From positions 1 through 34,438 of the forward strand of contig CAIXSC010000173.1 of the NCBI GenBank assembly GCA_903921945.1: a DNA stretch of 34,438 bases. The letters run 5' to 3'. Positions within the stretch are counted from its first letter, which is position 1; the number at the start of each line of letters is the position of its first letter. This stretch comes from an uncultured Planctomycetaceae bacterium (GTDB lineage Bacteria; Planctomycetota; Planctomycetia; Pirellulales; Pirellulaceae). The notes below the pieces were generated by a model that made no database searches, was not told where the DNA came from, and was given only the letters and a program-made list of their open reading frames with translations. Positions 6,515 to 34,438 of the stretch are shown here, piece by piece. The position numbers and the translations under genes were made by a program.

Positions 6515-6578
6515 CGCGAAATGGGTCGTCTTTGCGCAAGTGCCTATCGTTTCTTGATTTGCGTGTGGCGAATCAATC

Positions 6579-6606: not shown

Positions 6607-6837
6607 CCCGTCCGTTGGCAAGCTCGGTAATTCGGGAAGAAACGGTGGAAACTGCCGATTCTACCGGAGCCGGAAGAGCGGAAGCTTGCACACGCCACGG
6701 AGTCTGAAACCGAAGGATCATTGGACCAGGCGCTCTCAAGTGTCGCCGGGGCACGCCAAACACGCGGTAATCCAGGCAGGGTAGCCGGATGCGTCGTTTG
6801 CCCACGGACCGGCGCAACGCGGGGGTAGGAAGGACGG

Positions 6838-7434: not shown

Positions 7435-7449
7435 CCCAACGCGGTCCGC

Positions 7450-9314: not shown

Positions 9315-9767
9315 GGCGTTTAGCCCTCCTTGGACAAGTTCTCACCGGTCCCCATGGTCGCTGGTCTAACCTTGCTGGTACCTGTGTCAGGGGTGCCAGT
9401 CGGCTGGGGGAACCCTTCTGATCGATACGGAATTTCTGTCCGATCGCCAAGAGCGTTTGCGGGCGGTTCTCCGGCTTTCACTTCCGGTAGCGTGCCGCGA
9501 GAGGCGGCGGAATGTCGGATGGCGGCAAGGATGAGAAGACGCGACGAGCGTGTCGACGGGAGAAACTGGGAAGTTCGCACCGACGGCGCCGTCGCGGCCG
9601 CCGCGCGGAGAAGCCGTAGAGTTCCCCTCGCTTTCCGTCCGATCAATCTCCGAGGCGGCATGGGGGTCTCTGGTAACCGGTCTAGCCCGGCGCCGCCCGC
9701 ATCCAGGGAAGGATGCGTTGCTCGCTCGACTTATCCCCGATGGTTTTCCGGCCAGGAGCAGACTCGC

Positions 9768-10952: not shown

Positions 10953-10967
10953 GAGCGAATCGCCGCT

Positions 10968-11450
10968 ATGCCCCTGAAAACGCAACTCGATGAACAGCCA
11001 TCGCTCAATCTCACGTCGATGATCGACATCGTGTTCAACCTGATGATTTTCTTCATGGTTGGAACGCGTTTCAGTTCGCTGGAGGAACGAATCGACGTCC
11101 GAGTGCCCCAGGTGAGCAATGCGGCTCCGTCCCGTGTGCCGCCCACAAAACTGACGATTACCGTGCAGCGTGACGGGGCGATTATGCTCGACGGCCGGCC
11201 GCTGGGGCTCGAACAGTTGGGGCCGCGCCTGCGTGCGGAACGGTTGCGGAATCCGGCGATCGCGGTCGTGGTCCGCGGCGACGGCGACGGCGCGCTCAAA
11301 CATGCCGCTGGAGTGCTTTCCGCCTGCCGAGTCGCGGGTATTGCGGATTTGGGGATTGCGGTTCGTGTCGAGCCATCCGCTCGACCGGAGAATGTTCGTT
11401 CCGCGGCCGCTCCCCCTGGCGTAGCCTCCGGCGAAAGCGTCTCCCGATGA
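10968..11450 (+). CDS. Biopolymer transport protein ExbD/TolR family, 160 aa
   Basis: PSLNLTSMIDIVFNLMIFFMV followed by a periplasmic domain (ITVQRDGAIMLDGRPL...VVVRGDGD...) is typical ExbD/TolR. AGGAG lies upstream, and the gene starts 15 nt after the ExbB-like stop. Confidence 0.88.
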   Translation: MPLKTQLDEQPSLNLTSMIDIVFNLMIFFMVGTRFSSLEERIDVRVPQVSNAAPSRVPPTKLTITVQRDGAIMLDGRPLGLEQLGPRLRAERLRNPAIAVVVRGDGDGALKHAAGVLSACRVAGIADLGIAVRVEPSARPENVRSAAAPPGVASGESVSR

Positions 11451-13588: not shown

Positions 13589-13668
13589 ACGAGTTCCAGT
13601 AGGCAGGGTTCAAGAACAGGGCTGGATGCTCGCCGAGTTGGCACTGGATTGTGGCTGTCGGACGGGCC

Positions 13669-14298
13669 TCAGGATTTCACGGCATCGAGCATCGCTTTGG
13701 CACGGGCTTCAATGACGTCCCAGCGACCGGCTTTGACATCGGCCGGTTCGAAAAGGCTATTGACGAAACCGACAGCGAACGCGCCCGCCTTGAGGTAGGC
13801 GGCGGCGTTTTCGAGCGTCACGCCGCTCGTGGGGACAATCCGCAGGAACGGCAGCGGGCCGAGCGTTTGTTGGACCCAGACCGGTCCCGTGCCCGGAGCG
13901 GGAAACAGCTTCTGCAACGCCGCGCCGCAGCGATACGCTTGCAGCATTTCCGTGGGTGTAGCGCATCCGGGCATCATCGCCACGCCCAATCGAGCCGCCT
14001 CGGCAATGATGGCTGGATCGATCACCGGGGCGACGAGAAACTTCGCCCCGGCCGCCACTGTCGCCCGAGCTTCTTCGACGGTCAGCACGGTTCCCGCACC
14101 CACCACCAGATTGGAATCCCGGGAGAATTCGGCGATCAAGTCGACCGCGCCGGGAATGCTCAAGGTGAACTCAATCACGCGAAATCCGCCGCGCACGGCG
14201 GCTCGCATCGCCTCCCTGGCCAAATCGACGTTCGACGTTCGCAGGATCGCGGACGCACGCTGGGAACGATACAGTCCGAGGAATTCATCGATATTCAT
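13669..14298 (-). CDS. eda: KDPG/KHG aldolase (2-dehydro-3-deoxyphosphogluconate / 4-hydroxy-2-oxoglutarate aldolase), 209 aa
   Basis: AILRTSNVDLAREAMRAAVRGGFRVIEFTL...VVGAGTVLTVEEA...GAKFLVAP...PGCATPTEM...LQKLFPA...VPTSGVTLENA is the Eda family pattern. The ATG at 14298 has AAGGAAG upstream, overlapping the end of the preceding gene. Confidence 0.88.
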   Translation of the reverse strand: MNIDEFLGLYRSQRASAILRTSNVDLAREAMRAAVRGGFRVIEFTLSIPGAVDLIAEFSRDSNLVVGAGTVLTVEEARATVAAGAKFLVAPVIDPAIIAEAARLGVAMMPGCATPTEMLQAYRCGAALQKLFPAPGTGPVWVQQTLGPLPFLRIVPTSGVTLENAAAYLKAGAFAVGFVNSLFEPADVKAGRWDVIEARAKAMLDAVKS

Positions 14299-14312
14299 GG
14301 TGTCTTGCTTCC

Positions 14313-14726
14313 TTAGTTGGCCACCGCGTCGAGGATTTCTTCGGCGACGAAAATCGGCAGCGCCGGGGTGCAACTGACGGCGACGGCGATCGCATCGGAG
14401 GGGCGGGCGTCCAGTTCCAGCAGTTCGCCGTCGCGGCGGACCCGGATGAGTGCGAAAAAGGTGTCGCTACGCAACTCGGTGATCAGGATGCTTTCCAGTT
14501 TGCCGCCCATCTGCTGAACGATTTGGACGATCAAGTCGTGCGTGAGCGGCCGGGGCGGAACCAGCGTCTTGTGAAGTTTCTTCACGCGTTGATCGATGCT
14601 TTTCGCCTCGCACATCCCGATCTCGATGGGAAACTGGCGGTCGCCATCGACTTCCCGGAGGAAGATCAGGTTGCGATTGGTGATCTCGTTGAGGACGATT
14701 CGGGCGAGCATCATCTGGACAGGCAT
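14313..14726 (-). CDS. Bifunctional nuclease (BFN/DUF151) family protein, 137 aa
   Basis: FLREVDGDRQFPIEIGMCEAKSI...PPRPLTHDLIVQIV...FFALIRVRRDGELLELDARPSDAIAVAV...PIFVAEEIL matches the BFN domain pattern. The ATG at 14726 is preceded by AGGAGG. Confidence 0.85.
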   Translation of the reverse strand: MPVQMMLARIVLNEITNRNLIFLREVDGDRQFPIEIGMCEAKSIDQRVKKLHKTLVPPRPLTHDLIVQIVQQMGGKLESILITELRSDTFFALIRVRRDGELLELDARPSDAIAVAVSCTPALPIFVAEEILDAVAN

Positions 14727-20149: not shown

Positions 20150-20353
20150 TTCGAAGCGACAGTCTTCGCCCGCGGCGGACGGAGTCGGAAGGAACTCGAT
20201 CTCAATCGCTTGTGGCTTGATGGCGCAAGGCTTTGTTTTCGAGGCTTCCGACTATGGCAGCCAACACAAATGGGCGATCGCCATTAGCCCGAGCTCTTTG
20301 CGGCTCTTTGGGGCTCTTTGGGGCTTGTTCGGTGAGTTTTCGCGGCAATCCAA

Positions 20354-20650
20354 GCGGTAAACAAAGAACCGCCGCGTTCACCGCTCAAGTTTACCGCCAC
20401 CTCGTTTACCGCCGAGCCGTAGGCGAAGGCCGGGCCGGCCCCGAGATCAGCGACGCGAGAGCAAATCGCGGCTTGCGGCACTGCCTGCGTTTTTCGCATA
20501 GCGGTAAACAAAGAACCGCCGCGTTCACTGTCAATTTCACCGCTAAAGTTTACCGCCACCTCGTTTACCGCCGAGCCGTAGGCGAAGGCCGGGCCGGCCC
20601 CGAGATCAGCGCCGCGAGAACAAATCGCGGCTCTGCCTGCGTCTTCAGCT
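20354..20650. repeat. Tandem duplication of a ~147 bp intergenic unit (2 copies, with indels)
   Basis: Copy 1 (20354-20500) and copy 2 (20501 to about 20650) both begin gcggtaaacaaagaaccgccgcgttcac. Both share ...aagtttaccgccacctcgtttaccgccgagccgtaggcgaaggccgggccggccccgagatcagcg.cgcgaga.caaatcgcggc. Copy 2 has a 12 nt insertion (tgtcaatttcac) and a short deletion. Confidence 0.88.
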
Positions 20651-20703
20651 CGGCGGTGAAGGATGATTGTCGCGAGTGGCCATGGCTTGACGCCCCAAAA
20701 TTC

Positions 20704-21699
20704 CTACTCGGGACGACGCGGCCGTTCGGGCCGCTCGACGCCGGGACCGGGTCGGCCGCCGGGCCCTGCGCCGCGTTCACCCGGACCGCCAGGCCCCGGA
20801 CCTCCGGGCCCTGGACCTCCAGGACCGAAACCGCCTGGGCCAACGCCTCCAGGACCGCCGCCTCCGGGGAAGGGCCCACCTTGGCCAGGTCCGCCTGGGC
20901 CGCGCCGGCCGGGGCCAGCGTGCTGACGAACGAAATCATCAATGAAGGCGCGTAACTCTTCAGCGCCGAGCTTGCCGTCTTTGTCGCGATCGAACGACAT
21001 CGCGTGATCCATCATGCGTTGGGGATCGGGGCCGGCTGGAGGTCCGCCTTCCGGCCGCGGTGGTCGTGGTCCGCCATCGGGTCCGCCTTCCGGCCGCGGT
21101 GGTCGCGGTCCGCCTTCGGGTCCGCCTTCCGGCCGCGGTGGTCGCGGGCCAGCGTCGGGTCCGCCTTCCGGCCGCGGTGGTCGCGGTCCGCCATCGGGTC
21201 CGCCTTCCGGCCGCGGTGGTCGTGGTCCGCCATCGGGTCCGCCTTCCGGCCGCGGTGGTCGCGGGCCGGCGTCGGGTCCGCCTTCTGGTCGCGGTGGTCG
21301 CGGGCCGCCATCGGGTCCGCCTGGTCCCCCCGGTCCGCCAAAGCCCGGACGGAAGCCTTGCGGTCGGTATTCGTCTTCGGTCAGTTTGCCATCACGATTC
21401 CGATCCAAGGTGGCCAAAGCGGTTGCCGCGTTCTTGAGCTCTTCGGCCGAGATTTCGCCGTTGCGATCGGCGTCCAGTGCCGCGATCAGTGGACTTGCCA
21501 TCCGTGGACCTGGAGGGCCGCCCGGTTGAGGGCCGCCGGGCGGCGGCCCTTGTGGACGGTCGGGGCCGCCGCGTCCGGGGCCGGCACCTGGCGGCCTTCC
21601 GGGGTCGCCACCGTCAGGTTTTCCTGGTGGCTGTGCGATGGCCAACACTGTTCCGCACGCGACCGCCGCCGCGCCAAATCCTGCTATCCATTTTTGCAT
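20704..21699 (-). CDS. Secreted EF-hand calcium-binding protein with Pro/Gly-rich 13-aa repeats, 331 aa
   Basis: The signal peptide reads MQKWIAGFGAAAVACGTVLAIA. There are three canonical EF-hand loops: DADRNGEISAEE, DRNRDGKLTEDE, DRDKDGKLGAEE. The middle region is (GGPDGGPRPPRPE)n. The ORF-track start at 21708 is a GTG; I prefer the ATG at 21699. Confidence 0.8.
   Translation of the reverse strand: MQKWIAGFGAAAVACGTVLAIAQPPGKPDGGDPGRPPGAGPGRGGPDRPQGPPPGGPQPGGPPGPRMASPLIAALDADRNGEISAEELKNAATALATLDRNRDGKLTEDEYRPQGFRPGFGGPGGPGGPDGGPRPPRPEGGPDAGPRPPRPEGGPDGGPRPPRPEGGPDGGPRPPRPEGGPDAGPRPPRPEGGPEGGPRPPRPEGGPDGGPRPPRPEGGPPAGPDPQRMMDHAMSFDRDKDGKLGAEELRAFIDDFVRQHAGPGRRGPGGPGQGGPFPGGGGPGGVGPGGFGPGGPGPGGPGPGGPGERGAGPGGRPGPGVERPERPRRPE
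21041..21313 (-). repeat. 39 nt in-frame tandem repeat, 7 copies plus a partial copy
   Basis: The plus-strand unit ggtccgccttccggccgcggtggtcg(t/c)ggtccgcc(a/t)tcg recurs exactly every 39 nt from 21041. It encodes the GPRPPRPEGGPDG repeats. Confidence 0.9.
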
Positions 21700-21754
21700 T
21701 GCCTGCACCCTATTATGGTTGACTAGAAACGAACGATTTATGTCGACGGTGGAA

Positions 21755-23293: not shown

Positions 23294-23716
23294 CGGAGCA
23301 TCCCCATACGGAACGTGAAGCTAGTCGCCGCGCGAGCGAACGCTGCGCGCACGAAACTCGGCGATGGCTGAACGCAACAGAGTAACGTCCGCCGTCCCCG
23401 GTTTATTGCGGGGCGTCCGAAAAAAGCCATCGCAGCGGAAGCCGTCCGGGGAATCTCTCGCTCGGGAGCAGCGCGATTGCCACTCACCGTGGAATATGGA
23501 TTCTCCGACAGCGTTGAAACGGGCCAATTCGACGTCGCAAGGGCACCTGTTGGAAGTGGCCGGCGAGTCGGCGGCCATCGCCGCGGCCACGGGATGTTCC
23601 GGGGATTCGCGCGACCGCAGGGGGGCTTCGCATTTGACATTCCACTGCGGAACCGATTACAGTTTCGCGGTCGAGAAGGGATTGATTCGCTAGGAAAGCG
23701 GCTGGGGAAACGGACA

Positions 23717-24721
23717 GTGCTATTCCATCGGGACACGTTTCGCAGCCTTCACGCGCGTTGGCTGGCGTTGGCGATTGTGGCCTTCGCGGCCAGTGCCCTA
23801 GCGTACGTGTGGGAATGGCGGTTGATCGGAGCGCTCCCGGGCGGCGGTTCCCGCGTCGGCTTGGTGCTTGGCGTTGTCGCGGGCATCATTTGCCTGTTTG
23901 AATTCGCGCTCGTAGGGCGCAAAACGCGTTGGTTCCGCACGCGTCGGCGGATTCTCGGCCTATCGATCGGCTCGGCGAAAGCTTGGATGGCCGCCCATAT
24001 TTGGCTCGGTTTGCTCGCCGTGCCCCTGGTTTTTTTGCATAGCGGCTTCCAGTTCGGCGGACCTCTGACCACCGCGTTGGCGTGGCTGTTCGCGTTGGTG
24101 ATCGCCAGCGGCGCGGCCGGTTTGGTGCTTCAAAACATTTTGCCGCGACTCATCACCGATTCGATTCCTGAAGAGACCATCTATTCACAGATCGACACCG
24201 TGGGGCGGCAGTTCGCGGCGGACGCGGTGCGGTTAGCGCAGCGTTACGCCGGACCCGGACCGCGTGGTCTGTGGGACGACTTCGAGTCGCAATTCGCCGC
24301 CGAGCGAGGTGTGGCGGGCGATGTGTTGGTGGTCGGCGCGCCTCGCCGCGTGGGCACGATCGTCACGCCCACACCGCACGGTGAACTTGAGAAACCGCTC
24401 GCGGCCGACTCCCCCGAGCTGCACGCGGCGCTTCGCGATCAGGTTGTCGCCTTCCTCTCGACTGGCCGGGCGGCGTCGGCCGATTTCTCATCGGTCGCGC
24501 GGATTCGCTGGTATTTCGAAGACCTGCGGCGTCGGGTTGTCCGCGACGCCGCCCCTGCGATCGACCAGATTGAGTCGCTCTGCCTGCAACGTCGGCAAAT
24601 GGAACGGCAGAAGAACCTGCATGTCGTTTTGCACTGTTGGCTGTCGGTCCACTTGCCGCTGTCGGTGGCGCTGATGTGGTTGTTGGTCGCTCACGTTTTT
24701 GGCGCCCTGCTGTATGCATAA
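23717..24721 (+). CDS. Polytopic membrane protein with conserved-looking His in TM helices (candidate b-type haem or quinone-interacting subunit), about 334 aa; start uncertain
   Basis: Predicted TM helices: WLALAIVAFAASALAYVW, VGLVLGVVAGIICLFEFALVG, WMAAHIWLGLLAVPLVFLHSG, LTTALAWLFALVIASGAAGLVL. A ~170 aa soluble segment follows, then a terminal TM LHVVLHCWLSVHLPLSVALMWLLVAHVFGALLY. I chose the GTG at 23717; the longest ORF starts at a TTG at 23477 (GGGAG upstream). Confidence 0.6.
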   Translation: MLFHRDTFRSLHARWLALAIVAFAASALAYVWEWRLIGALPGGGSRVGLVLGVVAGIICLFEFALVGRKTRWFRTRRRILGLSIGSAKAWMAAHIWLGLLAVPLVFLHSGFQFGGPLTTALAWLFALVIASGAAGLVLQNILPRLITDSIPEETIYSQIDTVGRQFAADAVRLAQRYAGPGPRGLWDDFESQFAAERGVAGDVLVVGAPRRVGTIVTPTPHGELEKPLAADSPELHAALRDQVVAFLSTGRAASADFSSVARIRWYFEDLRRRVVRDAAPAIDQIESLCLQRRQMERQKNLHVVLHCWLSVHLPLSVALMWLLVAHVFGALLYA

Positions 24722-24754
24722 TCGCCCCAGCATCCTCGCCCGGCGAAACCGTTT

Positions 24755-26575
24755 ATGAGTCCACCTGTCGGTCCCCCGCAATCACCGGCGAAGCAGCGAG
24801 CGCTCCGCATTCCGCTCGATTATTACAAGCGGTGGACCGCTCTCGATCGCGCGAAGTGGATGCTCGCGGCGCTCGCGACCATCGTGGGCGCGGCCTACGC
24901 GGTTTGGGTCGTGGCGGGGTATCGGAGCGGCGCGGCGGCCCGCCAGTTCTCGCCGGGCCATGTGACGCTAGCCCACGCGGCTTGGAACGACCGCTGCGAT
25001 GCGTGCCACGAACCGGGTACGCCACTCAACCCGCACGCCGGTGGCAGCGAGACCCTGCGACAATGGTTGACGGGCGGAACGAAGCCGGCCCGGTTGCTGA
25101 ACGAACAAAAATGTGTCGCCTGCCACCCAGCGGCGACCCACCATCCCCGTCAAATCGCCGACCAAGTTGAAACTTGCGCTTCCTGCCACCACGATCACGC
25201 CGGCGTCGACGCCGATCTGAAGCAAGTCGCCAGCGAACGTTGCATCGCCTGCCATGCGGAGATCGCCGGCCACTCCACGCTGGCCACCGCGACTCCGGCG
25301 GTGAATGTCGCCTCCTGGGCAACTCATCCCGATTTCCGTGCCTTGGATCATGCTGATCCGGGTCGAGTCAAATTCAATCATCGATTGCACCTGCTTCCGG
25401 GGCAGTACCCGCGGGACGCGAAACCTTCCGCCTTGAAACGACTCGGCACGATCCACAAGTCGTATTGGAATCTCCTTGGTTACGCCCAGGACGCGTCACC
25501 CGATACCGTGGTGCAACTCGATTGCTCGGCGTGCCACGAATTCGAAGAAACCTCGGGCCGTCTCGCCTCCACCCGTTCAACGACCGGTTCGCTTGAGAAC
25601 TCAACAACAGAGTCCGCTGCGACAGAGTCCGCTGCGACAGAGTCCGCATCAACAGAGTCCGCTGCGAAACGGGGTGGTCCGCAGAGCGGTGCTTCGAGTC
25701 CGCTGGTGAGCGGGAATGTGCCGGCCACCGGCGCCTACGCGTTGCCGATCCGTTACGAGCGTCACTGCGCGTCTTGCCATGACGCCGACCTTGCGGCAAC
25801 GGTGGAAGGCTCGCGTGGTGCTGTTCGCGCGTCGATTCCGCATGGTTCGTCGCCGGACACGATCCGCGGCCTTCTCCGCGGCGCGTTCTTGGCCGCCGAA
25901 AGCGATTCGAGCACCGCGACCGGTGGCGGCGTTGCACGCGGCACTCCCGGTGACGGTCCGCTGGTTCCACGCCGCGCCGTGCCCGGCCGTTCGCTGCGGA
26001 GCAACGATGCTGGTCAATCGACGGGCACCAGTCTCGAAGCGATTCCCGCGGCGGCCCGCGTTCGACAGGCCGAATTGCAATTGGCGGCGGAAAGCCACTG
26101 TGGGAAATGCCATCCGTTTTCCGCGGCAGACGCGTCGCGCGGCACGGCCCAAGTTGCGGCGGCGACGGACAGTGAACTGCTCGCGGTGGGCCCGACACAG
26201 ATTCCCGCGATCTGGTTATCCAAGGGCGGTTTCGACCATGCCGCGCATCGCGCGTTGCGCTGCGATGCGTGCCATGAATCGTCTTCGTTCGAGTGGTCCG
26301 CGGGCGGCAAGCCGCCAATCGATGATGCCAAGCCGAAGATCCCGCGAATTGACAACTGTCGCCAGTGCCATGGCGATTCGCCGGCTCAGACGAAGGCGTC
26401 CGTCGCGGTTCGTGCGGATTGCGTGACGTGCCATCGCTATCATGCTGCCAACGATCCGCCGCACGGACACGGCGCCCCCTCGCACACGCCGCCGCCGGCG
26501 CGCCGAATTAGCGCCCGCGAGTGGCTCGATGGCCGCTTTTACCGATCGGAACTTGCCGAGGGGACAACGCCGTGA
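24755..26575 (+). CDS. Membrane-anchored decaheme c-type cytochrome, 606 aa
   Basis: Ten CXXCH motifs: CDACH, CVACH, CASCH, CIACH, CSACH, CASCH, CGKCH, CDACH, CRQCH, CVTCH. The N-terminal anchor reads WMLAALATIVGAAYAVWVVAGY. Confidence 0.87.
   Translation: MSPPVGPPQSPAKQRALRIPLDYYKRWTALDRAKWMLAALATIVGAAYAVWVVAGYRSGAAARQFSPGHVTLAHAAWNDRCDACHEPGTPLNPHAGGSETLRQWLTGGTKPARLLNEQKCVACHPAATHHPRQIADQVETCASCHHDHAGVDADLKQVASERCIACHAEIAGHSTLATATPAVNVASWATHPDFRALDHADPGRVKFNHRLHLLPGQYPRDAKPSALKRLGTIHKSYWNLLGYAQDASPDTVVQLDCSACHEFEETSGRLASTRSTTGSLENSTTESAATESAATESASTESAAKRGGPQSGASSPLVSGNVPATGAYALPIRYERHCASCHDADLAATVEGSRGAVRASIPHGSSPDTIRGLLRGAFLAAESDSSTATGGGVARGTPGDGPLVPRRAVPGRSLRSNDAGQSTGTSLEAIPAAARVRQAELQLAAESHCGKCHPFSAADASRGTAQVAAATDSELLAVGPTQIPAIWLSKGGFDHAAHRALRCDACHESSSFEWSAGGKPPIDDAKPKIPRIDNCRQCHGDSPAQTKASVAVRADCVTCHRYHAANDPPHGHGAPSHTPPPARRISAREWLDGRFYRSELAEGTTP
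25607..25666 (+). repeat. 15 nt in-frame tandem repeat (acagagtccgctgcg, 4 copies) encoding (TESAA)n
   Basis: Direct reading; the protein shows TTESAATESAATESASTESAA in a linker between haem motifs 5 and 6. Confidence 0.85.
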
Positions 26576-28326
26576 TGCTGTCCCCGCGTAAACTTGTCCG
26601 CCGCTTCGCCGCGGGACTGTGTGTGGCTGGCTTGGTGTTGGCGTTGCGGGTTGTCCCGGACGGCGCCCCTTCCGCGTCCCGCGCGACGTTCGCCGCGCCT
26701 CAGGCAGCGACTGCATCTTCGGCGGTCCCGGCGTCGGTTCCTTCGGCAGTCCGTGCGGCAGTCCCTTCGCCCGCGGTGGTGGCGGCGAGCCAGTTGTCGG
26801 CCGCACCTAACTCGCCGGCGCCGCCGGCTTCCACAGGGTGCTCGGCTTCCGCCTGCCACGGCGACCCTGTGGCAGGTGAGGTCCGCGATTGGCGTTCCGC
26901 CGCCACGGCGTGGTCGCTGTTCGATCCCCATCGCCGCGCCTTCGCCGTGCTTTACTCGCCGCGCTCCGTGGAGATCTACGACAATTTGCAGCGAGCCGAG
27001 CAGGAAGGCGCGCCGACGAGCATGCTTCGAGCCTCTCAAGGCACGGCTGACACCGCCGCGTCTGCCGCAATCGAAGGGCCTGATCCAGCGGCGTACGCGC
27101 GGTTCCTGGCCGAACGCTGCATCGGTTGCCACGCGACGTCGCAAAAGCCGGAAGCACCGATCGAGACGCTGGCCGGAGTGACCTGCGGCTCATGCCATCC
27201 CAGCGACTCGGCCGAATGGACGGCCGGCCACTATCTTTCAACCTTCCCTGCGAAGTCCACGGTTGACGGCGCATCGCCGGCCGCTCGCGGAGATCTGTGC
27301 AGCTCGTGCCACCTTGGTCCGAAACGCGCGAGCGGACGTGTGTTTGATGTCAATCACGACCTCATCGCCGCCGGCCACCCGCGGATGCTTTTCGAACTCG
27401 ATTCGCTCTTGGCGAACTACCCCAAGCATTGGGACGAACGCGCGGTTGCTTCCAAGCGGCAAACCGCCGAGGGAGCCCGCTTCCAACACCTTGATCAGTG
27501 GTTCGCGGGCCAAGTCGCTGCCGCTCGCCGAACGCTGGATCAGCTAGAGCATCGCGCCGCGCTGGCGTCGCCCGACTTCGCGCAGTTCGCTTGCGGCGAT
27601 TGCCATCATGCCTTGTCGCCGCCGACCGGCCCCCGTCCACGGGCGGCGCGAGCGGCTTCACGTAAGGGCTCGCCTCGTCCGAGTCTCGAGTCGGTGGAAA
27701 CGCTGTTGTCGGGGCCGATAGCAGAGCCGACTGTCGGGGCGGCCGCCGCGTCCTCCGGTGGAGTTTCCACTGCGGACGTGCTCGAATCCGTTCGCCGCCA
27801 ACTGGAACGCTTCCAGCCATTCGACGACGCTGGCCGCGCGGCGATTGCGAAGCTGCGAGAACGCGTCGAGGCGGTTGCGAATCGCGGACCCGCGACGGTT
27901 GCCGATCATCGCGCTGTTGCCCGCTGGCTCGCCGACCAACTCCGCGAGCCGCGGCGGATCGATTCCTGGGATGCGGCTGTCGAGCGGTTGCTGGCCGTCG
28001 ACGCGTTCCGCGCCGATCTGCCGTCCGCCGCGTCGCCGACCGCGGATTCGCCTCCCGCCAAGGCGGCGGTCGCGGCCTTGAACGAAGCGTTGGAGAGGCT
28101 GCGGGCGGCGCTCTCCGATCCAGCATCGTTTGGACAAAACGGGGCGACGAGCGTTTCGACGTCTGTCCCGCCTCTGATTCCGACTCTCATTCCGACTCTG
28201 TACGACACGCCGGCGGCGTTCGATCCGAGCGTCATCGAGCCGTTGTTGCGGGCGGTCGCGGAACGGCTGGATGATCCCGCGTTTCCACTGCCCGCGTTTC
28301 CGAATCCCGAGGGTTCGCGACCATGA
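26575..28326 (+). CDS. Multiheme c-type cytochrome (4 CXXCH plus 1 CX4CH), cytochrome c554/HAO-like N-terminal half and Ala-rich helical C-terminal half, 583 aa
   Basis: Its ATG overlaps the upstream TGA (GTGATG at 26572-26577). The signal/anchor reads MLSPRKLVRRFAAGLCVAGLVLALRVV. Motifs: CSASACH, CIGCH, CGSCH, CSSCH, CGDCH, plus NHDLIAAGHPRMLFE. Confidence 0.8.
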   Translation: MLSPRKLVRRFAAGLCVAGLVLALRVVPDGAPSASRATFAAPQAATASSAVPASVPSAVRAAVPSPAVVAASQLSAAPNSPAPPASTGCSASACHGDPVAGEVRDWRSAATAWSLFDPHRRAFAVLYSPRSVEIYDNLQRAEQEGAPTSMLRASQGTADTAASAAIEGPDPAAYARFLAERCIGCHATSQKPEAPIETLAGVTCGSCHPSDSAEWTAGHYLSTFPAKSTVDGASPAARGDLCSSCHLGPKRASGRVFDVNHDLIAAGHPRMLFELDSLLANYPKHWDERAVASKRQTAEGARFQHLDQWFAGQVAAARRTLDQLEHRAALASPDFAQFACGDCHHALSPPTGPRPRAARAASRKGSPRPSLESVETLLSGPIAEPTVGAAAASSGGVSTADVLESVRRQLERFQPFDDAGRAAIAKLRERVEAVANRGPATVADHRAVARWLADQLREPRRIDSWDAAVERLLAVDAFRADLPSAASPTADSPPAKAAVAALNEALERLRAALSDPASFGQNGATSVSTSVPPLIPTLIPTLYDTPAAFDPSVIEPLLRAVAERLDDPAFPLPAFPNPEGSRP

Positions 28327-30218
28327 TTGTGCAAGAGCTGCTGCGCTTGCAGGACACGTTTGGCTACCTGCCTCGGAAGCAGATGGCGGCGCTTGCTCAT
28401 CGCCTATCCGTGCCGCTCTACCGAGTCCATGAGGTGGCGACGTTTTTTCCCCACTTCACGGTGTTTCCCACCGACGAAGAGGAGCGGCGTGGCGCGGCGG
28501 CGCTGCCCGAATTCGAAGTCGCCGTCTGTCGCGACATGGCCTGCCAACTTCGTGGAGCTCCCCAATATGTGGAGGCGCTCGAGAAGGCGGCGGCCGCTCA
28601 CGGTGGCAAAGTCCGAGTTCGCAGCGTTTCCTGCCTGGGGCGTTGCGACCGCGCACCGGCCGTGCGCATCGTTCAACACGCGTCCGGCGATGCGGGCTCG
28701 AGTCATTCCGATGCCCAGGACTCGTCGAATCACGGGCATCACGTGCGCGCCTTGATGGGAAGGCCGGTCGCCGAGGTCGTTGCTGTGGCCCAGTCGGTGT
28801 TCGCAGGCCGCGTCGATGACCGTTTGCCCGACGATCGGGACATCGCGTTTCCCCCGAGCCAAAACCCGGCCGAATGGCGCATCGATGCTTACGGAGGACA
28901 ACCGCGCGAGGCCCGTTACGCGGCGATTCGCCGGTTTGTGGCCAGCGCCTCCACCGACCCAAGTTTCAATAGCGAACGGGTTCGCATTATCAAGGCGCTG
29001 CAAACGGCGAATCTGCTCGGCATGGGTGGCGCTGGGGGACGGGCTTACAAGAAGTGGAGCGAAGTCCGCGAAGCGACTGGCGAGCGGCGCTACGTGGTGT
29101 GCAACGGCGATGAGAGCGAGCCGGGCACGTTCAAAGACCGCGAACTGTTGTTGCGGGCGCCGCATCTGGTCGTCGAAGGCATTTTGCTCGCCGCCCTGGT
29201 GGTTGGGGCCGAGCACGCCTTCCTTTACATCCGCCACGAATACGAAGAGGCGATCGAAGCGGCGCGACAGGAAATCGCGTGGGCTCGCCAGTATGGACTG
29301 TGTGGCGACAACATCCTCAACTCGGGATTGCGCTGCGATCTGCAAGTGTTCGTCAGCCCGGGCGGCTACATCTGCGGCGAGCAGACAGCGATGGTCCAGG
29401 CGATCCAGGACGAACGTGCCGAGCCCCGGAACCGGCCGCCCGAATTGCAGACGAACGGACTGTGGAACATGCCGACGCTGGTGAACAACGTCGAAACGCT
29501 CGCCTGGGCCCCCGCCATCGCGATCGCCGGCGACGGTTCGGGCCGCTGGTATGCCGACCATGGCCTCGCGGGTTATCAAGGGGCCCGATTTTTTTCCGTG
29601 TCGGGCGATGTCGAAAAGCCGGGCGTTTACGAGGTTCCCATCGGGATCACGCTGGGCGAGCTTTTGGACAATTACTGCGGCGGCATTCAAGGCGGCAAAC
29701 CGATCAAGGCGTTCGCGCTTTCCGGCCCGTCGGGCGGTTTTCTTCCGCCTGTTCTGCCGCTCGATTCGTTCAGTCCGGAAACTCGGGACAAGGTCAAAAA
29801 GTTGGCGGGCGAAGACGCGAACGCTTTCGATCTTCGCAAACTGCCGCTCGATCTGGGCGTCACTCGGCAGTTGAAGTTGATGCTCGGCGCGGCGATCGTC
29901 GTCTACGCGGAAGGCTCGGACCTTGTCGCGCAGATGCTGGCTTGCCAGCGTTTTTACCAAGCCGAGTCTTGCGGCAAATGCGTGCCGTGTCGAATCGGGT
30001 CGGCGAAGCTGGTTTCGATCGGCGAGGATTTGCGGACCGGCAAGCTCGATCAAGCTGCCGCTAACCGGTTGAGCGACCGGCAACAGAGCGAACTGTTCGC
30101 GTTGGCGCAGGCGATGGCGGACACCGCGATTTGTGGACTCGGCACTTCCGCCCCGAATCCGCTCAAATCGCTGCTCGCGTACTTCCCCCAAGATGTCTCC
30201 AAACACCTCCGGACCTAA
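28323..30218 (+). CDS. NuoE-NuoF fusion: NAD(P)H-oxidising flavoprotein (2Fe-2S thioredoxin-like domain plus FMN/NADH/4Fe-4S 51-kDa-type domain), 631 aa
   Basis: ATGA overlap with the upstream gene. The NuoE-like part reads YRVHEVATFFPHF, VAVCRDMACQLRGA, VSCLGRCDRAPAV. The NuoF-like part reads GMGGAGGRAYKKW (FMN), VVCNGDESEPGTFKDRELL (NADH), SPGGYICGEQTAM, PTLVNNVETLA, ESCGKCVPCRIG...ICGLG (4Fe-4S). Confidence 0.9.
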   Translation: MIVQELLRLQDTFGYLPRKQMAALAHRLSVPLYRVHEVATFFPHFTVFPTDEEERRGAAALPEFEVAVCRDMACQLRGAPQYVEALEKAAAAHGGKVRVRSVSCLGRCDRAPAVRIVQHASGDAGSSHSDAQDSSNHGHHVRALMGRPVAEVVAVAQSVFAGRVDDRLPDDRDIAFPPSQNPAEWRIDAYGGQPREARYAAIRRFVASASTDPSFNSERVRIIKALQTANLLGMGGAGGRAYKKWSEVREATGERRYVVCNGDESEPGTFKDRELLLRAPHLVVEGILLAALVVGAEHAFLYIRHEYEEAIEAARQEIAWARQYGLCGDNILNSGLRCDLQVFVSPGGYICGEQTAMVQAIQDERAEPRNRPPELQTNGLWNMPTLVNNVETLAWAPAIAIAGDGSGRWYADHGLAGYQGARFFSVSGDVEKPGVYEVPIGITLGELLDNYCGGIQGGKPIKAFALSGPSGGFLPPVLPLDSFSPETRDKVKKLAGEDANAFDLRKLPLDLGVTRQLKLMLGAAIVVYAEGSDLVAQMLACQRFYQAESCGKCVPCRIGSAKLVSIGEDLRTGKLDQAAANRLSDRQQSELFALAQAMADTAICGLGTSAPNPLKSLLAYFPQDVSKHLRT

Positions 30219-30224
30219 CGCGCT

Positions 30225-32771
30225 ATGGCCGACAACGTGTTTTTCGACGAACTGGCGCAGTCCTGGGAAGAGGAAGGCCTCTTCGCTCGCGACTTGAATG
30301 GCCAGTTGATTCGCGTCGTCGCGAAGACCGAGCAGGACTATTCGCGATACGTGACGGTGGTCATCGACGGCCAGGAGATCCAGGTGCCGCGCGCCGTCCC
30401 CACCACCGACGCGCAGGGCAACATCGTGCATGTCGACGCCGCTGGTCGCACGGTTCCGCGCGCGACCACTATCTTCGACGCCGCGCAGCAACTCATCCAG
30501 CGCGCGAACGCCGCCCGCCGCCAGGCCGATCCGCAGGCTTCGCCGGTTCCCAATCCGATTCCGACGCTGTGCCATTTGGAACATTTGAAGCCGGTCGGTG
30601 TTTGTCGCGTTTGTTCGGTGGCGGTGGAGACGTTCGAGGTCGATCCGCGCAACCCGAATGAAAAGAAACGCAAGCGGCAGGAAAAGCTGGTTCCCGCCTG
30701 CATGCAACCGGTTGAAGACAACATGATCGTCCACACGCTCGAATCGCCCGACTCGCGGCAACGCGGCAAGGTGGAACAGAGCGTGAAAGTGTTGTTCGAA
30801 CTGCTCGGGTCCGACCATTTGCCATCCTCGCCCCCCGCCCGTGGCGAGCAAGCGAGCGATCTGGAACGGCTCTTCGAGCGTTACAGCGGCCGGCTCGGCG
30901 CCCGCCGCGACCGCTTCGCACGGGCCGAAGCGCCGATCGCACCGCAAGACGACTCCTCGCCGCTCATCCATGTCGACCACGACGCCTGCATCCTGTGCGA
31001 TCGCTGCTCGCGCTCGTGCGGCGACGTCAAACAAAACTTCATCATCGGCCGGCAGGGTAAGGGCTATCTCGCGCAAATTGGCTTCGACCTCGGCAATCCG
31101 ATGGGCGAGTCGAACTGCGTCGAATGCGGCGAATGCATGCTCGCCTGTCCCACCACCGCGCTGACGTTCCGTAAACCGGTCGAGTCGGACTGGTACCGCG
31201 AGCAGTTGGCGAAACCGGGCCGCGCCGCCGTGTCCCCCGGCGAAATGGAGGAGAACGAGCTGCTGCGGACCTTGCCGTGGCGCTACCGTCAGTGGAACCA
31301 AAGCTCTGTGCTGCGTTGGCGAGTGAAACGCGGCGACGAACTGTGTCGGCTCGGCGACTACGGCTCGACCGCTTTTGTGCTGCATAGCGGTTCCTTCGGC
31401 GCTTGGCTGCCGCGTCGCGACGCCACTAGCGGCGCGTTGGCCGCCGGCTGGGATCAAGGCGAGCCGACCTTTGTGTGCGGACCGGACGAATTGATACTCG
31501 GAGAAATGACGATCCTCAGCCAATATCCGCGGAACGCCACCGTCCGCGCGCTGGCCGACGGCGAGGTTTACGAAATCCGCCGCAACGTGCTTTTCACCTT
31601 GCAACGCAGTCCGGAAGCTCGCGAAAAACTCGATCGCGTCTATCGCCGCCGCGCGATCTCCAACCACCTGAACAAAGTCCCGCTCTTCGCGAAACTCTCG
31701 GAGGACGACCGGCGGAAATGCCGAGACTTGTTGCTCCGCGAGCCGTCAGCCGCGGCCGGCGCGGCAGGCGGCCGGCGATCGATCGAACTGGTTCACGTCG
31801 ATCCCGGACAGACGATTTTCCGCCAGGGCGAGCGGGCCGACTGCTTCTACATGATCTACATCGGCCACGTGAAAGTCTCGCAGACGTTTGGCGGACAGGA
31901 ACGCGTGCTGACCTATCTGCGGCCCGATCAGTCGTTCGGCGAAATCGCCTGTATTGGCGATTGGCCGGAGATTCGCGACGCGATTCCGCCCGACCAACGC
32001 GGGCCGCTCGACAACCGTCGGGCCGCTTCGTGCGCGGCACTGGATGATGTCGCTTTGGTTCGCATCGACGCTTCCGCCTTTCGCGCGTTGCTCCGCGAAG
32101 TGCCCGCGTTGAAAGCGCAAATCATCGACCAAGCCCGCGGGTACTTGGCCGATCGGCAAGGGCCCAGTCCGGCAGCCGCGCCGAAACGCCAGACCAGCAG
32201 TGAACTCCAAGCATTCACGGACCAGGGACTGTACAACGCGCAGCGGCTCTTGGTGCTTGACCTGGAATCGTGTACTCGATGCGATGAGTGTACCAAGGCC
32301 TGTTCGGACACCCATTCCGGTATCACTCGGCTGATCCGCGACGGCCTCCGGTTCGACAAGTGGCTGGTCGCCAGCAGTTGCCGCAGTTGCACCGATCCAT
32401 ATTGCTTGGTGGGATGTCCGGTCGACGCGATTCATCGTCTCGATCCGAATAGCTCGCATCAGCCGATCCGTATTTCCGCCGCCGATCGGCATCCCGATTC
32501 GCAACGCACCGAAATCCAGATCGAAAACAATTGCATCGGGTGCGGTTTGTGCGCGAAAAACTGTCCCTACGGCAACATCAATATGCACGGCGAAGAACGG
32601 CTGGATGCGGCCACCAAGCGGCCGGTCGTGCAGTTCCGCGCGACCACCTGCGATCTGTGTGGCGATATCGTCGGCAATCAATGGCGCGATGTCAGTTGCG
32701 TCTACGCTTGCCCTCATGATGCGGCTCATCGCGTTCGCGGCGATGAACTCCTAACTATGCTCCGTCGTTGA
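30225..32771 (+). CDS. Multidomain Fe-S protein: HoxU/NuoG-N-terminal-like 2Fe-2S plus 2x[4Fe-4S], two cyclic-nucleotide-binding domains, and a C-terminal DmsB/NrfC/HybA-type 4-cluster ferredoxin, 848 aa
   Basis: The 2Fe-2S pattern reads PTLCHLEHLKPVGVCRVCSV...PAC. CILCDRCSRSC and CVECGECMLACP follow. The cNMP-like segments read ILGEMTILSQYPRNATVRALADGEVYEI and FRQGERADCFYMIYIGHVKV...FGEIACIG...RRAASCAALDDVALVRI. The C-terminal clusters are CTRCDECTKAC, CRSCTDPYCLVGCP, CIGCGLCAKNCP, CDLCGD...CVYACP. Confidence 0.85.
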   Translation: MADNVFFDELAQSWEEEGLFARDLNGQLIRVVAKTEQDYSRYVTVVIDGQEIQVPRAVPTTDAQGNIVHVDAAGRTVPRATTIFDAAQQLIQRANAARRQADPQASPVPNPIPTLCHLEHLKPVGVCRVCSVAVETFEVDPRNPNEKKRKRQEKLVPACMQPVEDNMIVHTLESPDSRQRGKVEQSVKVLFELLGSDHLPSSPPARGEQASDLERLFERYSGRLGARRDRFARAEAPIAPQDDSSPLIHVDHDACILCDRCSRSCGDVKQNFIIGRQGKGYLAQIGFDLGNPMGESNCVECGECMLACPTTALTFRKPVESDWYREQLAKPGRAAVSPGEMEENELLRTLPWRYRQWNQSSVLRWRVKRGDELCRLGDYGSTAFVLHSGSFGAWLPRRDATSGALAAGWDQGEPTFVCGPDELILGEMTILSQYPRNATVRALADGEVYEIRRNVLFTLQRSPEAREKLDRVYRRRAISNHLNKVPLFAKLSEDDRRKCRDLLLREPSAAAGAAGGRRSIELVHVDPGQTIFRQGERADCFYMIYIGHVKVSQTFGGQERVLTYLRPDQSFGEIACIGDWPEIRDAIPPDQRGPLDNRRAASCAALDDVALVRIDASAFRALLREVPALKAQIIDQARGYLADRQGPSPAAAPKRQTSSELQAFTDQGLYNAQRLLVLDLESCTRCDECTKACSDTHSGITRLIRDGLRFDKWLVASSCRSCTDPYCLVGCPVDAIHRLDPNSSHQPIRISAADRHPDSQRTEIQIENNCIGCGLCAKNCPYGNINMHGEERLDAATKRPVVQFRATTCDLCGDIVGNQWRDVSCVYACPHDAAHRVRGDELLTMLRR

Positions 32772-32785
32772 TCGGGCTGCCTGTC

Positions 32786-34438
32786 ATGAACCGCTCCCGC
32801 AGCCGTCGTCGCTGGACGACGCTCGCTTTGATCCTGTTGCCCGTCGCGGTCCTGGCGGCGATTGTCGCGCTCCGCCTCCAGCCGCGTCGCGAGGCTCAAT
32901 GCGAGCTTCTGACGGCGGCCAAGACGAAGGCGATCGCGCTGCTCGAAAATGGCAAAGAGAACTTGGCCGAGCCGCTGTGGGACCAGATCGCCGCGCTCCT
33001 GCCGAACGAACCGCTGGCTGCTCGGAATCGAGCGCTCGGCCGGTTGCTCGTCTTGTCCAAGGACAAGAGTGAAGAAGTCTTCGCGAACGCGACGGCGGCG
33101 GTTGCCGCCGCGAAATTGGCCGAGCCATCTTCCTGGGTGCCGTTCTGGATCGAAGGCCGGCTGGAATTGCTGAAGAAGGATCTTCCCACAGCGCCGGAAA
33201 CGCAGGACGCCCACCTTTCCGCCGCGCTGCGGGCCTTCGCCGAATCGGCCCGACTCGGGCCCGACCAAGCGATTCCTCGTTACGAACAGTTCCAAGCCAG
33301 CAAACTCTCCGCGGTCGAAGCTGAAGTGTCCGCCGGCCGGCTCGCGCTTGCCGAGGCCTATCGACTCGATCCGGCGAACCTGTTCATCGCGCTTGACTGG
33401 TTGGAGGTCGCGGCCGAGGCCCGCGATGCCAAGTTTGCCGCCGCCGTCAGCCAGTTCTTGAAAACACTCGGACCGCTCCTCCCTGGTTTGAAACGCCGCA
33501 CGCGGATCGATGTCGAACCGTTCGTGCAACAGGCGGTCGAAATGGCGGCGAAGGACCAATGGCCACAAGCGGCTGGCATCGTGCGTCGACTCGGATTCGT
33601 CCGCGCCGAGGATGTCGCCCAAAGCGACTATCGCCGCATTCTGCCCAATCCGTTGGAACTTGTGCTGCACGAATTCCGCGACGCCCGCTGCGACCCGCCC
33701 GTGCCCGTCGCGGCGCCCGCGATTCCCGTTCAATTCACCTCCCAGCGAATCACGGGGAGCGCCCCAGCCGCGTCCGGCAAGGCTCGACCGGGCGACGTTC
33801 GCGTCGTCGACTTCGACTTGGACGGGCAACTTGATGTTGTCTGGCTGGACACGGAAAAGTTGACGGTGTTTTCCCGAACGGCACCGATGAACGGGACATC
33901 GCCCAGTTGGAAAGCGACCTACAGCTTTCCTGTGGAAGCCGGATATCACCGCTTGCTCGCCGCCGACCTGGACCGTGACGACAAAGGGGCCGATCGACCG
34001 CCGCCACGCGATGTGGAACTGTTCTTTCAGGCGGATGCCGACCTCGTCCTTTACGGTCCCGCGGGACTGCGTGTGTACCGCAATCGGTTGGATCCAGCGA
34101 CCGGTGAACGGCGTTTGGAAAACGTGGAGCAAACCGAGTCGTTGGCGGCCGCACGCGAGGTGTCGGCGGCGACGCTCGCCGACTTCGATCACGACGGCGA
34201 TCTCGATCTGGCTTTCGCCGCGGCAGGTGGCGTTGGCCTCTGGATCAATCGCGGGAACCTCACGTTTGACGATGTCTCCGCGTCGTCGACGTTGCCACCG
34301 CGTGGTGTGTTGCCGGCGGGACTGCAGGCCGTCGATTGGGACCGTGATATCGACGCCGACATTCTCGTTGCGGACGCCAGCGGACAAACGCTCGGCTACT
34401 TGGAAAACCTGCGGCATATCGAATTCCGTTGGCGGCCG
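32786..34438 (+). CDS. Membrane-anchored protein with helical (TPR-like) N-terminal region and FG-GAP/VCBS beta-propeller repeats; partial, continues past the window end
   Basis: Absent from the ORF track (no in-window stop). The ATG at 32786 opens a frame that stays open to 34438 (551 codons): MNRSRSRRRWTTLALILLPVAVLAAIVAL.... FG-GAP-like repeats include VRVVDFDLDGQLDVVWL, LLAADLDRDD, ATLADFDHDGDLDLAFA and LQAVDWDRDIDADILVA. The 563-aa minus-strand ORF 32726-34417 is its antisense shadow. Confidence 0.78.
   Translation, partial: MNRSRSRRRWTTLALILLPVAVLAAIVALRLQPRREAQCELLTAAKTKAIALLENGKENLAEPLWDQIAALLPNEPLAARNRALGRLLVLSKDKSEEVFANATAAVAAAKLAEPSSWVPFWIEGRLELLKKDLPTAPETQDAHLSAALRAFAESARLGPDQAIPRYEQFQASKLSAVEAEVSAGRLALAEAYRLDPANLFIALDWLEVAAEARDAKFAAAVSQFLKTLGPLLPGLKRRTRIDVEPFVQQAVEMAAKDQWPQAAGIVRRLGFVRAEDVAQSDYRRILPNPLELVLHEFRDARCDPPVPVAAPAIPVQFTSQRITGSAPAASGKARPGDVRVVDFDLDGQLDVVWLDTEKLTVFSRTAPMNGTSPSWKATYSFPVEAGYHRLLAADLDRDDKGADRPPPRDVELFFQADADLVLYGPAGLRVYRNRLDPATGERRLENVEQTESLAAAREVSAATLADFDHDGDLDLAFAAAGGVGLWINRGNLTFDDVSASSTLPPRGVLPAGLQAVDWDRDIDADILVADASGQTLGYLENLRHIEFRWRP

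Follow-up and report, generated by a model that had tools for sequence, protein, structure and literature searches.

Several described systems resemble, in one part or another, the planctomycete locus considered here. These include the HoxEFU, NuoEFG and FdsBG modules, the FdnGHI and NarGHI complexes, in which a ferredoxin subunit with four clusters binds to a dihaem cytochrome b, the Tmc, Hmc and DsrMKJOP complexes of sulfate reducers, for which transmembrane electron transfer is assumed, and CymA, ImcH and CbcL of Shewanella and Geobacter. To our knowledge, every characterised inner-membrane route to periplasmic multihaem cytochromes begins at the quinol pool, and we know of no respiratory complex in which a second messenger controls electron flow directly. 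The locus lies in a stretch of 34,438 nucleotides (nt) from an uncultured Planctomycetaceae bacterium (GenBank assembly GCA_903921945.1, contig CAIXSC010000173.1, positions 1 to 34,438), hereafter the window, and contains five consecutive genes, g1 to g5. From their sequences, we lean towards the view that they encode one membrane-bound, quinone-independent NADH:multihaem-cytochrome c oxidoreductase, which would be regulated by cyclic nucleotide monophosphates (cNMPs) and would export electrons to the periplasmic side. All of its modules are of known kinds; what is unusual is the direct input from NADH without an evident quinone step, together with an embedded cNMP sensor. A literature search returned no description of the five-gene cluster, a study of haem b binding by DUF4405 proteins being the only relevant paper, and no characterised homologue was found.

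The cluster and the modules of its largest gene are laid out as follows, with lengths in amino acids (aa).

23634..23663, plus strand: promoter-like site TTGACA-18-TACAGT, sigma-70-like, 54 nt before the g1 start
23717-24721, plus strand: g1, membrane protein, GTG start, 334 aa
24755-26575, plus strand: g2, predicted decahaem cytochrome, 606 aa
26572 (GTG) or 26575 (ATG) to 28326, plus strand: g3, predicted pentahaem cytochrome
28323-30218, plus strand: g4, NuoE-NuoF fusion, 631 aa
30225-32771, plus strand: g5, predicted cytoplasmic cNMP-binding polyferredoxin, 848 aa
30543..31184, plus strand: HoxU/NuoG-N-terminal-like module (g5 residues about 107-320)
31272..32174, plus strand: tandem cyclic-nucleotide-binding (CNB) domains (g5 residues about 350-650)
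32250..32729, plus strand: DmsB/FdnH/ActB-like four-cluster [4Fe-4S] ferredoxin (g5 residues about 676-835)
32786 to the window end, plus strand: g6, N-terminally anchored protein with FG-GAP/VCBS repeats, incomplete at the window end

Six plus-strand open reading frames (ORFs) occupy 23717-34438, and the five-gene unit proper spans 23717-32771. From g1 to g6 the intergenic distances are 33, -4 or -1, -4, 6 and 14 nt, with stop and start codons overlapping at the g2/g3 (GTGATG) and g3/g4 (ATGA) junctions, so that co-transcription of the five genes may be inferred. The promoter-like site before g1 agrees with the consensus at 10 of 12 positions, which is weak evidence given that two such sites were seen where 1.1 were expected, and terminator-like hairpins are not enriched within the cluster (eight seen, 11.2 expected). 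The sequence-only reading that preceded this analysis had proposed a coupled cluster of six genes. Its spacings hold, and the sixth gene has to be taken out of the unit: g6 is confined to the three most closely related loci (L001-L003) and is thus a lineage-specific neighbour. The start of g1 also requires comment, as its ORF is open from 23477 and the public gene call (P0121, 414 aa) takes the longer form. Some 280 homologues of 320-340 aa begin where the GTG at 23717 lies, and the 80-codon N-terminal extension of the public call is unsupported by them.

The g4 product carries the predicted NADH-oxidising site. It exceeds the Pfam gathering cut-offs for 2Fe-2S_thioredx (69.5 bits, cut-off 24.8), Complex1_51K (129.2 bits), SLBB (36.1 bits) and NADH_4Fe-4S (75.4 bits), it matches the nuoF_fam model with E = 8.5e-96, and its translation shows both the Cx4C...Cx3C pattern of the NuoE 2Fe-2S site and an ESCGKCxPCR...C motif. 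Its predicted cofactors are a 2Fe-2S cluster, flavin mononucleotide (FMN) and an N3-type 4Fe-4S cluster, which is the set found in the NuoE and NuoF parts of the HoxEFU, NuoEFG and FdsBG modules. The nearest matches in the PDB are FdsB, HydB and NuoF, with E values from 1e-80 (FdsB) to 1e-72. An assignment to the NuoF equivalog of complex I was rejected, as the score against TIGR01959 is 320.8 bits versus a cut-off of 558.65 and no other nuo gene lies in the window. Unlike in the HoxEFU, NuoEFG and FdsBG systems, NuoE and NuoF are fused here, and they are not accompanied by a partner of the hydrogenase, molybdopterin or Nuo Q-module type.

The g5 product joins three modules. Its Pfam matches comprise Fer2_4 (28.3 bits, cut-off 22.8), cNMP_binding and multiple Fer4 families, and its six complete four-Cys groups, as well as the four-Cys 2Fe-2S site, are invariant in 13 homologues; about 2000 protein clusters were found for it. 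Within the N-terminal module, the predicted 2Fe-2S site is formed by C116, C127, C130 and C159 and two [4Fe-4S] sites by C255..C265 and C298..C308, an arrangement that again recalls HoxU and NuoG. This part matches HoxU (E = 8.6e-24) and the N-terminus of FeFe_hydrog_A6 (E = 6e-36), finds the N-termini of HydA, FdsA and Nqo3 in the PDB, and also aligns with the N-terminus of NuoG. It scores 84 bits against the HoxU model, whose cut-off is 333, with two CxxCxxCxxxC groups invariant. The differences from these relatives are twofold: the His-ligated 4Fe-4S cluster of NuoG, HoxU and HydA is missing (no Hx3Cx2Cx5C motif in g5, with only H198 conserved there among the 13 homologues), and the module is followed in the same protein by CNB domains and by a ferredoxin resembling DmsB.

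The middle of g5 matches cNMP_binding over two stretches (92 bits, cut-off 27.5; E = 2.4e-26), and PDB matches to regulatory subunits of protein kinase A (PKA) cover both CNB domains. Cassette A, LGEMTILSQYPRNATV, is canonical and follows the G-E-x-x...P-R-x-A-T pattern of PKA regulatory subunits and CRP. G426, E427 and R436 of domain A and G572, E573 and R599 of domain B are invariant among homologues of 50-70% identity. In contrast to PKA and CRP, the CNB domains of g5 sit midway in an iron-sulfur (Fe-S) protein and are not tied to a kinase-binding or DNA-binding output.

The C-terminal module holds four invariant cluster groups (C683..693, C719..731, C770..780 and C809..829) and matches DMSO_dmsB, NapG, FDH3 beta, ActB of ACIII (6f0k_B), HycB and an AOR Fe-S subunit. 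It resembles the ferredoxin subunits of FdnGHI and NarGHI and, like NarH, would be cytoplasmic. Hydropathy reveals neither a transmembrane (TM) segment nor a signal peptide in g4 or g5. The DmsB equivalog was considered and discarded, since DMSO_dmsB gives 36 bits versus a cut-off of 214 and genes for DmsA and DmsC/NrfD are missing. For the same reasons, the label 'Anaerobic dimethyl sulfoxide reductase chain B' carried by the Anatilimnocola aggregata homologue of g5 (P0084) is a misnomer.

The protein that would bridge the membrane is g1. Its predicted topology has the N-terminus inside, five TM helices and a helical cytoplasmic domain of about 160 aa. In a 30-sequence alignment H12, H94, H108, H312 and H326 are invariant, and His residues outside the membrane are not conserved. 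Four of these residues form two pairs, H94/H108 in TM3 and H312/H326 in the last TM helix, each spaced i,i+14, and the same four are kept in remote relatives found at E values of about 1e-21 to 1e-29. Such spacing is that of the haem-ligating helices of respiratory cytochromes b, and the four-His geometry read from the g1 sequences is that of two stacked bis-His haems b, as is also the case for the two His pairs of the FdnGHI and NarGHI membrane subunits. An AlphaFold2 model (predicted local distance difference test score, pLDDT, 82.6) has four TM helices, a helical soluble domain at about residues 150-275 and a final 58-residue helix whose last 30 residues are hydrophobic. Since the loop at residues 66-88 holds eight Arg/Lys, the positive-inside rule would place both that loop and the soluble domain in the cytoplasm, and hence H94/H312 near the cytoplasmic face and H108/H326 near the periplasmic one.

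Profile searches do not allow g1 to be assigned to a curated family. Sub-threshold matches among 30 family members are to DUF4405 (28/30 at E <= 1, best 4.9e-5), Ni_hydr_CYTB (7/30) and Ferric_reduct (5/30), a search of PDB sequences with the alignment profile gave chance-level matches only, and domain fusions sought among long family members were not found, the extra length having no Pfam domain. DUF4405 proteins have been shown experimentally to bind haem b, with four central His residues like those of MsrQ (PMC11334425). On this basis g1 is plausibly a dihaem cytochrome b of a new family distantly related to DUF4405. That family is large, with 3239 clusters at 50% identity in an exhaustive hidden Markov model search, and all g1 homologues carry the annotation 'hypothetical'. 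DUF4405, MsrQ, PepSY-like, NOX and STEAP proteins share with g1 the four membrane His residues for two stacked haems b and an outward path from an NAD(P)H-linked flavoprotein. They differ in having six TM helices instead of five, in lacking the large cytoplasmic helical domain, and in the donor, which is a fused flavin adenine dinucleotide domain or a flavinylated protein and not an Fe-S chain; the acceptor here would be multihaem cytochromes, and the matches of g1 to these families stay below cut-off. From NarI and FdnI, g1 is set apart by the absence of an above-cut-off Pfam match, by its five TM helices and by the 160-aa cytoplasmic insert. At the level of the complex, the far-side partner in the cluster consists of multihaem cytochromes and not of a quinone site, and the proposed flow runs outward from NADH.

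On the periplasmic side stand g2 and g3, c-type haem attachment being extracytoplasmic. The g2 product has a single N-terminal TM helix (residues 36-54), preceded on its cytoplasmic side by the conserved basic motif SAKQRALRIPLDYY, and a periplasmic domain with ten CXXCH. About 11 further His residues are invariant among 33 sequences, a number that suits ten bis-His haems. It matches Pfam Cytochrome_C7 (E = 3e-13) and, weakly, a c3-type tetrahaem protein in the PDB (E = 0.011); PDB sequence searches with g2 and g3 gave nothing usable, and the AlphaFold2 model of g2, built from 33 homologues, has a mean pLDDT of 56, too low for a fold search. The g3 product, a predicted secreted or anchored pentahaem cytochrome, has a hydrophobic N-terminal segment, one CX4CH (CSASACH) and four CXXCH. 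These five motifs are conserved together with H119, H219, H261, H268 and H285 in 44 homologues, many of which carry a lipobox and which match Cytochrome_C554; the C-terminal 230 aa or so are poorly conserved. All 15 haem motifs are invariant (g2 in 33 and g3 in 44 homologues), and their count is far above chance. In six loci (L009, L010, L012, L016, L019 and L033) the two are fused into a single protein of 850-1050 aa with 14 CXXCH and one CX4CH. Neither protein looks catalytic, and the terminal acceptor therefore lies elsewhere.

Assignments of these cytochromes to known families were tried and did not hold. For g2, the MtrA/DmsE decahaem model TIGR03508 gives 25.7 bits versus a cut-off of 192.2, the common feature being only the count of ten CXXCH, and no Cytochrom_NNT or NrfH match in Pfam or NCBIfam places it with the NapC/NirT/NrfH/CymA tetrahaem proteins. 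No Pfam or NCBIfam match supports g3 as a member of the MtrA/DmsE or NapC/NrfH families either. As in CymA, ImcH and CbcL, an anchored multihaem cytochrome would stand at the inner-membrane start of a periplasmic wire, and CbcL also combines a cytochrome b with a multihaem unit; those systems are quinol-fed, whereas the cytochromes here are encoded together with a dedicated NADH dehydrogenase module and a polyferredoxin. The gene sets of Tmc, Hmc and DsrMKJOP likewise combine a cytoplasmic Fe-S protein with a cytochrome b in the membrane and a multihaem cytochrome c in the periplasm, but they differ from the present cluster by its NADH-oxidising flavoprotein and CNB domains and by their HdrD/CCG-type or NrfD-like subunits; CCG, Nitrate_red_gam and NrfD matches are absent from the six window proteins. 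Nor does the cluster belong with NAD-dependent hydrogenases or formate dehydrogenases of the HoxEFU type, since no catalytic subunit occurs in the window or among the recurrent neighbours in 79 related loci. Judged by the defining features of each, membership of complex I, HoxEFUYH, DmsABC, Mtr, NapC and Tmc/Hmc was, in short, rejected.

Apart from the inclusion of g6, what had been read from the letters of this region is confirmed in all details open to checking, and the conditions that had been named as refuting it came out in its favour within the reach of computation. The cofactor motifs proposed for g4 and g5 are borne out by above-cut-off Pfam matches and invariant Fe-S cysteines, and the signal peptides said to be lacking were indeed not found by hydropathy. 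The 14 CXXCH and one CX4CH assigned to two N-terminally anchored proteins divide as ten in g2 and four plus the CX4CH in g3, and the His-paired membrane protein suggested as a bridge has a coherent predicted topology. It had also been stated that the usual partners of such diaphorases are missing, and no hydrogenase, molybdopterin, NrfD/DmsC or, outside g4, Nuo gene was found across the whole 34-kb window. None of the proteins stands close to a subunit of a characterised complex, PDB sequence matches being absent for g1, g2 and g3 and a structural match also for g1.

The gene-neighbourhood comparison that had been recommended as a check used an alignment of g5 homologues as seed against one genome per GTDB species, which gave 198 relatives and 79 loci that were kept. 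Synteny was assessed by tblastn of the six window proteins on these loci, because greedy longest-ORF calling on loci of 64% GC took antisense ORFs. One such frame, of 1087 aa on the minus strand at 28404-31667, opposite g4 and g5, was rejected as a gene, being an artefact of high GC and of the conserved genes on the sense strand; similar antisense frames in related loci group together by BLAST. All five genes are present in 44 of the 79 loci, colinear in 32 and rearranged in 12, where the g1-g2(-g3) block lies downstream of g5 at a distance of a few kb and is read from the other strand; such a displaced block is found in one clade. The flanks are too short to judge upstream in 26 loci and downstream in six, and only three loci with full flanks are incomplete (L028, L040 and L032), so that the cluster is complete in 44 of the 47 loci whose flanks are long enough. 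In L028 it is g3 that finds no match. The colinear order holds down to a g5 identity of 38% (L078). The loci are labelled Planctomycetota, except for one labelled Candidatus Kuenenia (L051), and the cluster occurs in genomes labelled Pirellulaceae, Planctomycetaceae and Gemmataceae (a metagenome-assembled genome, MAG; L081), with the orders Pirellulales and Planctomycetales among the labels, as well as in the complete genome of the cultured Anatilimnocola aggregata (L080, CP036274.1).

More remote variants, reached through weak g2 matches, show which parts stay together. Their gene content is as follows.

L083: Pyr_redox_2/3 + 2xCNB + four-cluster ferredoxin (5756-8125), g1-like (E = 9e-28), g2-like, HbpS-like, 589-aa protein, LVIVD multihaem protein, C554-like (g3-like)
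L084: 2xCNB + ferredoxin without flavoprotein (3486-4997), g1-like, g2-like; g3-like divergent
L085: g1-like, g2-like, NuoEF, g5-like
L086: ferredoxin C-terminus, g1-like, FHA-fused g2-like (1232-3052), HbpS-like, 633-aa protein, LVIVD protein, C554-like
L087: g1-like, g2-like, HbpS-like, uncharacterised protein; no adjoining ferredoxin gene

In L083, L084 and L086 the ferredoxin gene lies directly upstream of the g1-like gene, which is followed by the g2-like gene. The L083 genes all run in one direction and either overlap or touch, and in the remote variants neither CNB cassette departs from the canonical form. Judged by these sequences, the constant core is the tandem CNB plus four-cluster ferredoxin, g1 and g2, while the NAD(P)H input module is interchangeable. 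No other observation argues as strongly as this retained core for electron transfer from the ferredoxin module to g1 and for the CNB domains as an inherent part of the system.

A second set of genes recurs beside or inside the cluster (L080:12695-21730, L007, L038, L048, L050, L079, L083, L086 and L087). It encodes a 137-aa protein, an HbpS-like protein of about 700 aa, a secreted protein of 590-650 aa and an LVIVD protein of about 1350 aa with ten CXXCH. The protein of about 640 aa that adjoins the LVIVD cytochrome has no Pfam or PDB match, and its aromatic C-terminus hints at an outer-membrane barrel; the set may form a periplasmic or outer part of the electron path. The window itself carries no genes for the HbpS-like, 640-aa and LVIVD proteins.

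Genes for a GAF plus class III adenylate/guanylate cyclase (GAF- or CHASE2-cyclases in one count) occur in the flanks of 15 of the 79 loci. In about ten of these the cyclase adjoins the cluster directly, upstream of g1 or downstream of g5. Examples, among others, are L020:2235-4079, L029:12637-14451, L036:12343-14148, L040:12511-14259, L063:2014-3969, L074:1879-3783 and 12505-14430, and L079:865-2775. A CHASE2-cyclase gene also lies upstream of the L083 genes, and another stands near the cluster in L084 together with FHA and PP2C genes; these last, like the FHA fusion of the g2-like protein in L086, hint at added control by Ser/Thr phosphorylation. The window itself contains no cyclase gene. 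The recurrent cyclases are indirect evidence that g5 may bind cAMP or cGMP (cyclic adenosine or guanosine monophosphate) with an allosteric effect. The sequence-only reading had called the conduit gated, an idea that gains support from the conserved cassette residues, the neighbouring cyclases and the retention of CNB domains in the core of the remote variants.

What the sequences show is domain content, conservation of cofactor ligands, predicted topology and gene linkage, from which assembly into a complex, direction of flow, gating and the acceptor are inferred. In the proposed mechanism, the five products would form a single complex. NADH would be oxidised at the FMN of g4, and electrons would pass from its N3-type 4Fe-4S cluster into g5, first to the 2Fe-2S and the two 4Fe-4S clusters of the HoxU-like module and then to the C-terminal four-cluster module. 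The latter would bind to g1 at its cytoplasmic domain, much as NarH docks on NarI. The membrane would be crossed via the two stacked bis-His haems b, from the H94/H312 haem on the cytoplasmic side to the H108/H326 haem on the periplasmic side, and exit would take place through the decahaem g2 and then the pentahaem g3, towards an acceptor whose gene lies outside the five-gene core. In A. aggregata and in L007, L038, L079, L083 and L086 the chain probably extends further, through the HbpS-like, the 640-aa and the 1350-aa decahaem LVIVD proteins. The potential of NADH is -320 mV and the membrane potential is positive outside, and both the redox potential and the membrane potential would thus favour the outward direction. 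Since outward flow would dissipate NADH and membrane potential alike, a switch makes sense, and the CNB tandem between the two Fe-S modules is proposed as that switch: cAMP or cGMP, produced by the cyclases that many loci encode nearby, would bind there and switch or tune the flow. A fuller version, in which cAMP or cGMP on the Fe-S subunit opens or closes a quinone-independent path from NADH to multihaem cytochromes whose input is exchangeable across lineages and whose output is often extended, is offered only tentatively.

Several observations weigh against the proposed oxidoreductase. At the level of g1, it falls below the cut-off of every Pfam cytochrome b family (DUF4405, 17.2 versus 26.7 bits), and a Foldseek search of the PDB with its AlphaFold2 model returned nothing at E < 1, so the whole-chain modelled fold is one without a solved counterpart. 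At the level of regulation, CRP/FNR-type folds can bind ligands other than cNMPs, and cassette B of g5, while keeping FGE...R-x-A-[ST], has in this lineage a 17-aa insert that PKA and CRP do not share. Furthermore, as planctomycete promoters are poorly described, the operon structure is deduced from spacing alone. Finally, g4-g5 stand in L040 with no g1-g3 inside 10 kb, a g5 paralogue stands by itself in L032 (another locus of the same MAG, L034, is complete), and L087, the main caveat, has g1-like and g2-like genes with no adjoining ferredoxin gene, which implies that the modules can exist apart and that g1 may accept electrons from another source such as quinol.

This last point leads to the alternative that fares best, although we regard it as unlikely: g1 would be a cytochrome b that reacts with quinone, as FdnI, NarI, PhsC and the b domain of CbcL do, with the quinone pool linking two halves, namely a non-pumping NADH:quinone oxidoreductase (g4-g5-g1) and/or a quinol:multihaem-cytochrome oxidoreductase (g1-g2-g3). 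The characterised entry points CymA, ImcH and CbcL are all quinol dehydrogenases, the g1 family shows weak Ni_hydr_CYTB matches, L087 pairs g1-like and g2-like genes in the absence of the ferredoxin, and L085 adjoins genes for NDH-2 and succinate dehydrogenase. What counts against a quinone link is that the four-cluster ferredoxin gene lies beside g1 in the remote variants, an association kept even where the NAD(P)H module has been exchanged, and that no quinone-site motif could be identified. As haem b proteins of the g1 type often also hold a quinone site, the quinone-linked and direct routes are compatible.

Rather less probable is that g4 and g5 form a soluble diaphorase or redox sensor under cNMP control, with a partner encoded elsewhere, for example the catalytic subunit of a formate dehydrogenase or hydrogenase, and are merely co-regulated with a separate cytochrome module. 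The isolated g4-g5 pair of L040 and the g5 paralogue of L032 would suit such an enzyme, as would the resemblance of g4 and of the N-terminal part of g5 to FdsB/FdsA and HydB/HydA. The Gemmataceae locus L081 has, 2.6 kb downstream of g5, a molybdopterin gene of the FdsA/NuoG type (9672-12565; Fer2_4 + Fer4 + Molybdopterin), whose product could be an alternative NuoEF partner in that lineage. However, the four-cluster module of g5 is of the membrane-wiring type and is retained when the flavoprotein is swapped or lost, linkage to g1-g3 holds in the 44 of 47 loci mentioned above, Pfam finds no sensor-type output domain in g5, and the window has no gene for a catalytic partner.

Reverse flow, from periplasmic or extracellular donors through g3, g2 and g1 to NAD+ reduction at g4, is considered very improbable. 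NuoEF/HoxEFU modules are reversible in vitro and sequence does not fix the direction, but electrons would have to move against the membrane potential and uphill in redox potential from c-type haem to NAD+, and the cluster appears to have no proton-pumping or ion-coupling subunit to pay for it. That unrelated redox genes are adjacent by chance is hardly credible, given their conservation in Pirellulaceae-, Planctomycetaceae- and Gemmataceae-labelled genomes, their block-wise rearrangement, the g2-g3 fusions and the translationally coupled starts.

The rest of the window encodes, among others, GroEL, a GlnA-like protein, a PP2C, a histidine kinase, MotA/ExbB and a KDPG aldolase. At 20704-21708 on the minus strand lies a gene whose secreted EF-hand product contains a 13-aa (39-nt) proline-rich repeat; seven overlapping copies of a 126-nt reference were located at 21002-21361. 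The neighbouring intergenic region at 20353-20660 holds two copies of a composite repeat of about 150 nt, 147-159 nt apart, with a 97-nt segment 97% identical and a 29-nt segment 100% identical between them, and an inverted-repeat partner lies at 20628-20663.

If the proposed oxidoreductase is correct, it would provide a path wired to NADH that bypasses quinones and lets cells dump reducing equivalents outside the cytoplasm. It would also give a role to a large family of 'hypothetical' membrane proteins and correct the 'DmsB' and 'NuoF' labels in planctomycete genomes, and the presence of the cluster in cultured planctomycetes such as Anatilimnocola aggregata makes the hypothesis directly testable. 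From the perspective of regulation, CNB domains in an Fe-S subunit and neighbouring cyclases suggest direct second-messenger control of electron flow. This would amount to post-translational, ligand-gated control of flux through a protein wire, and the enzyme, whether respiratory or redox-balancing, would belong to a new class.

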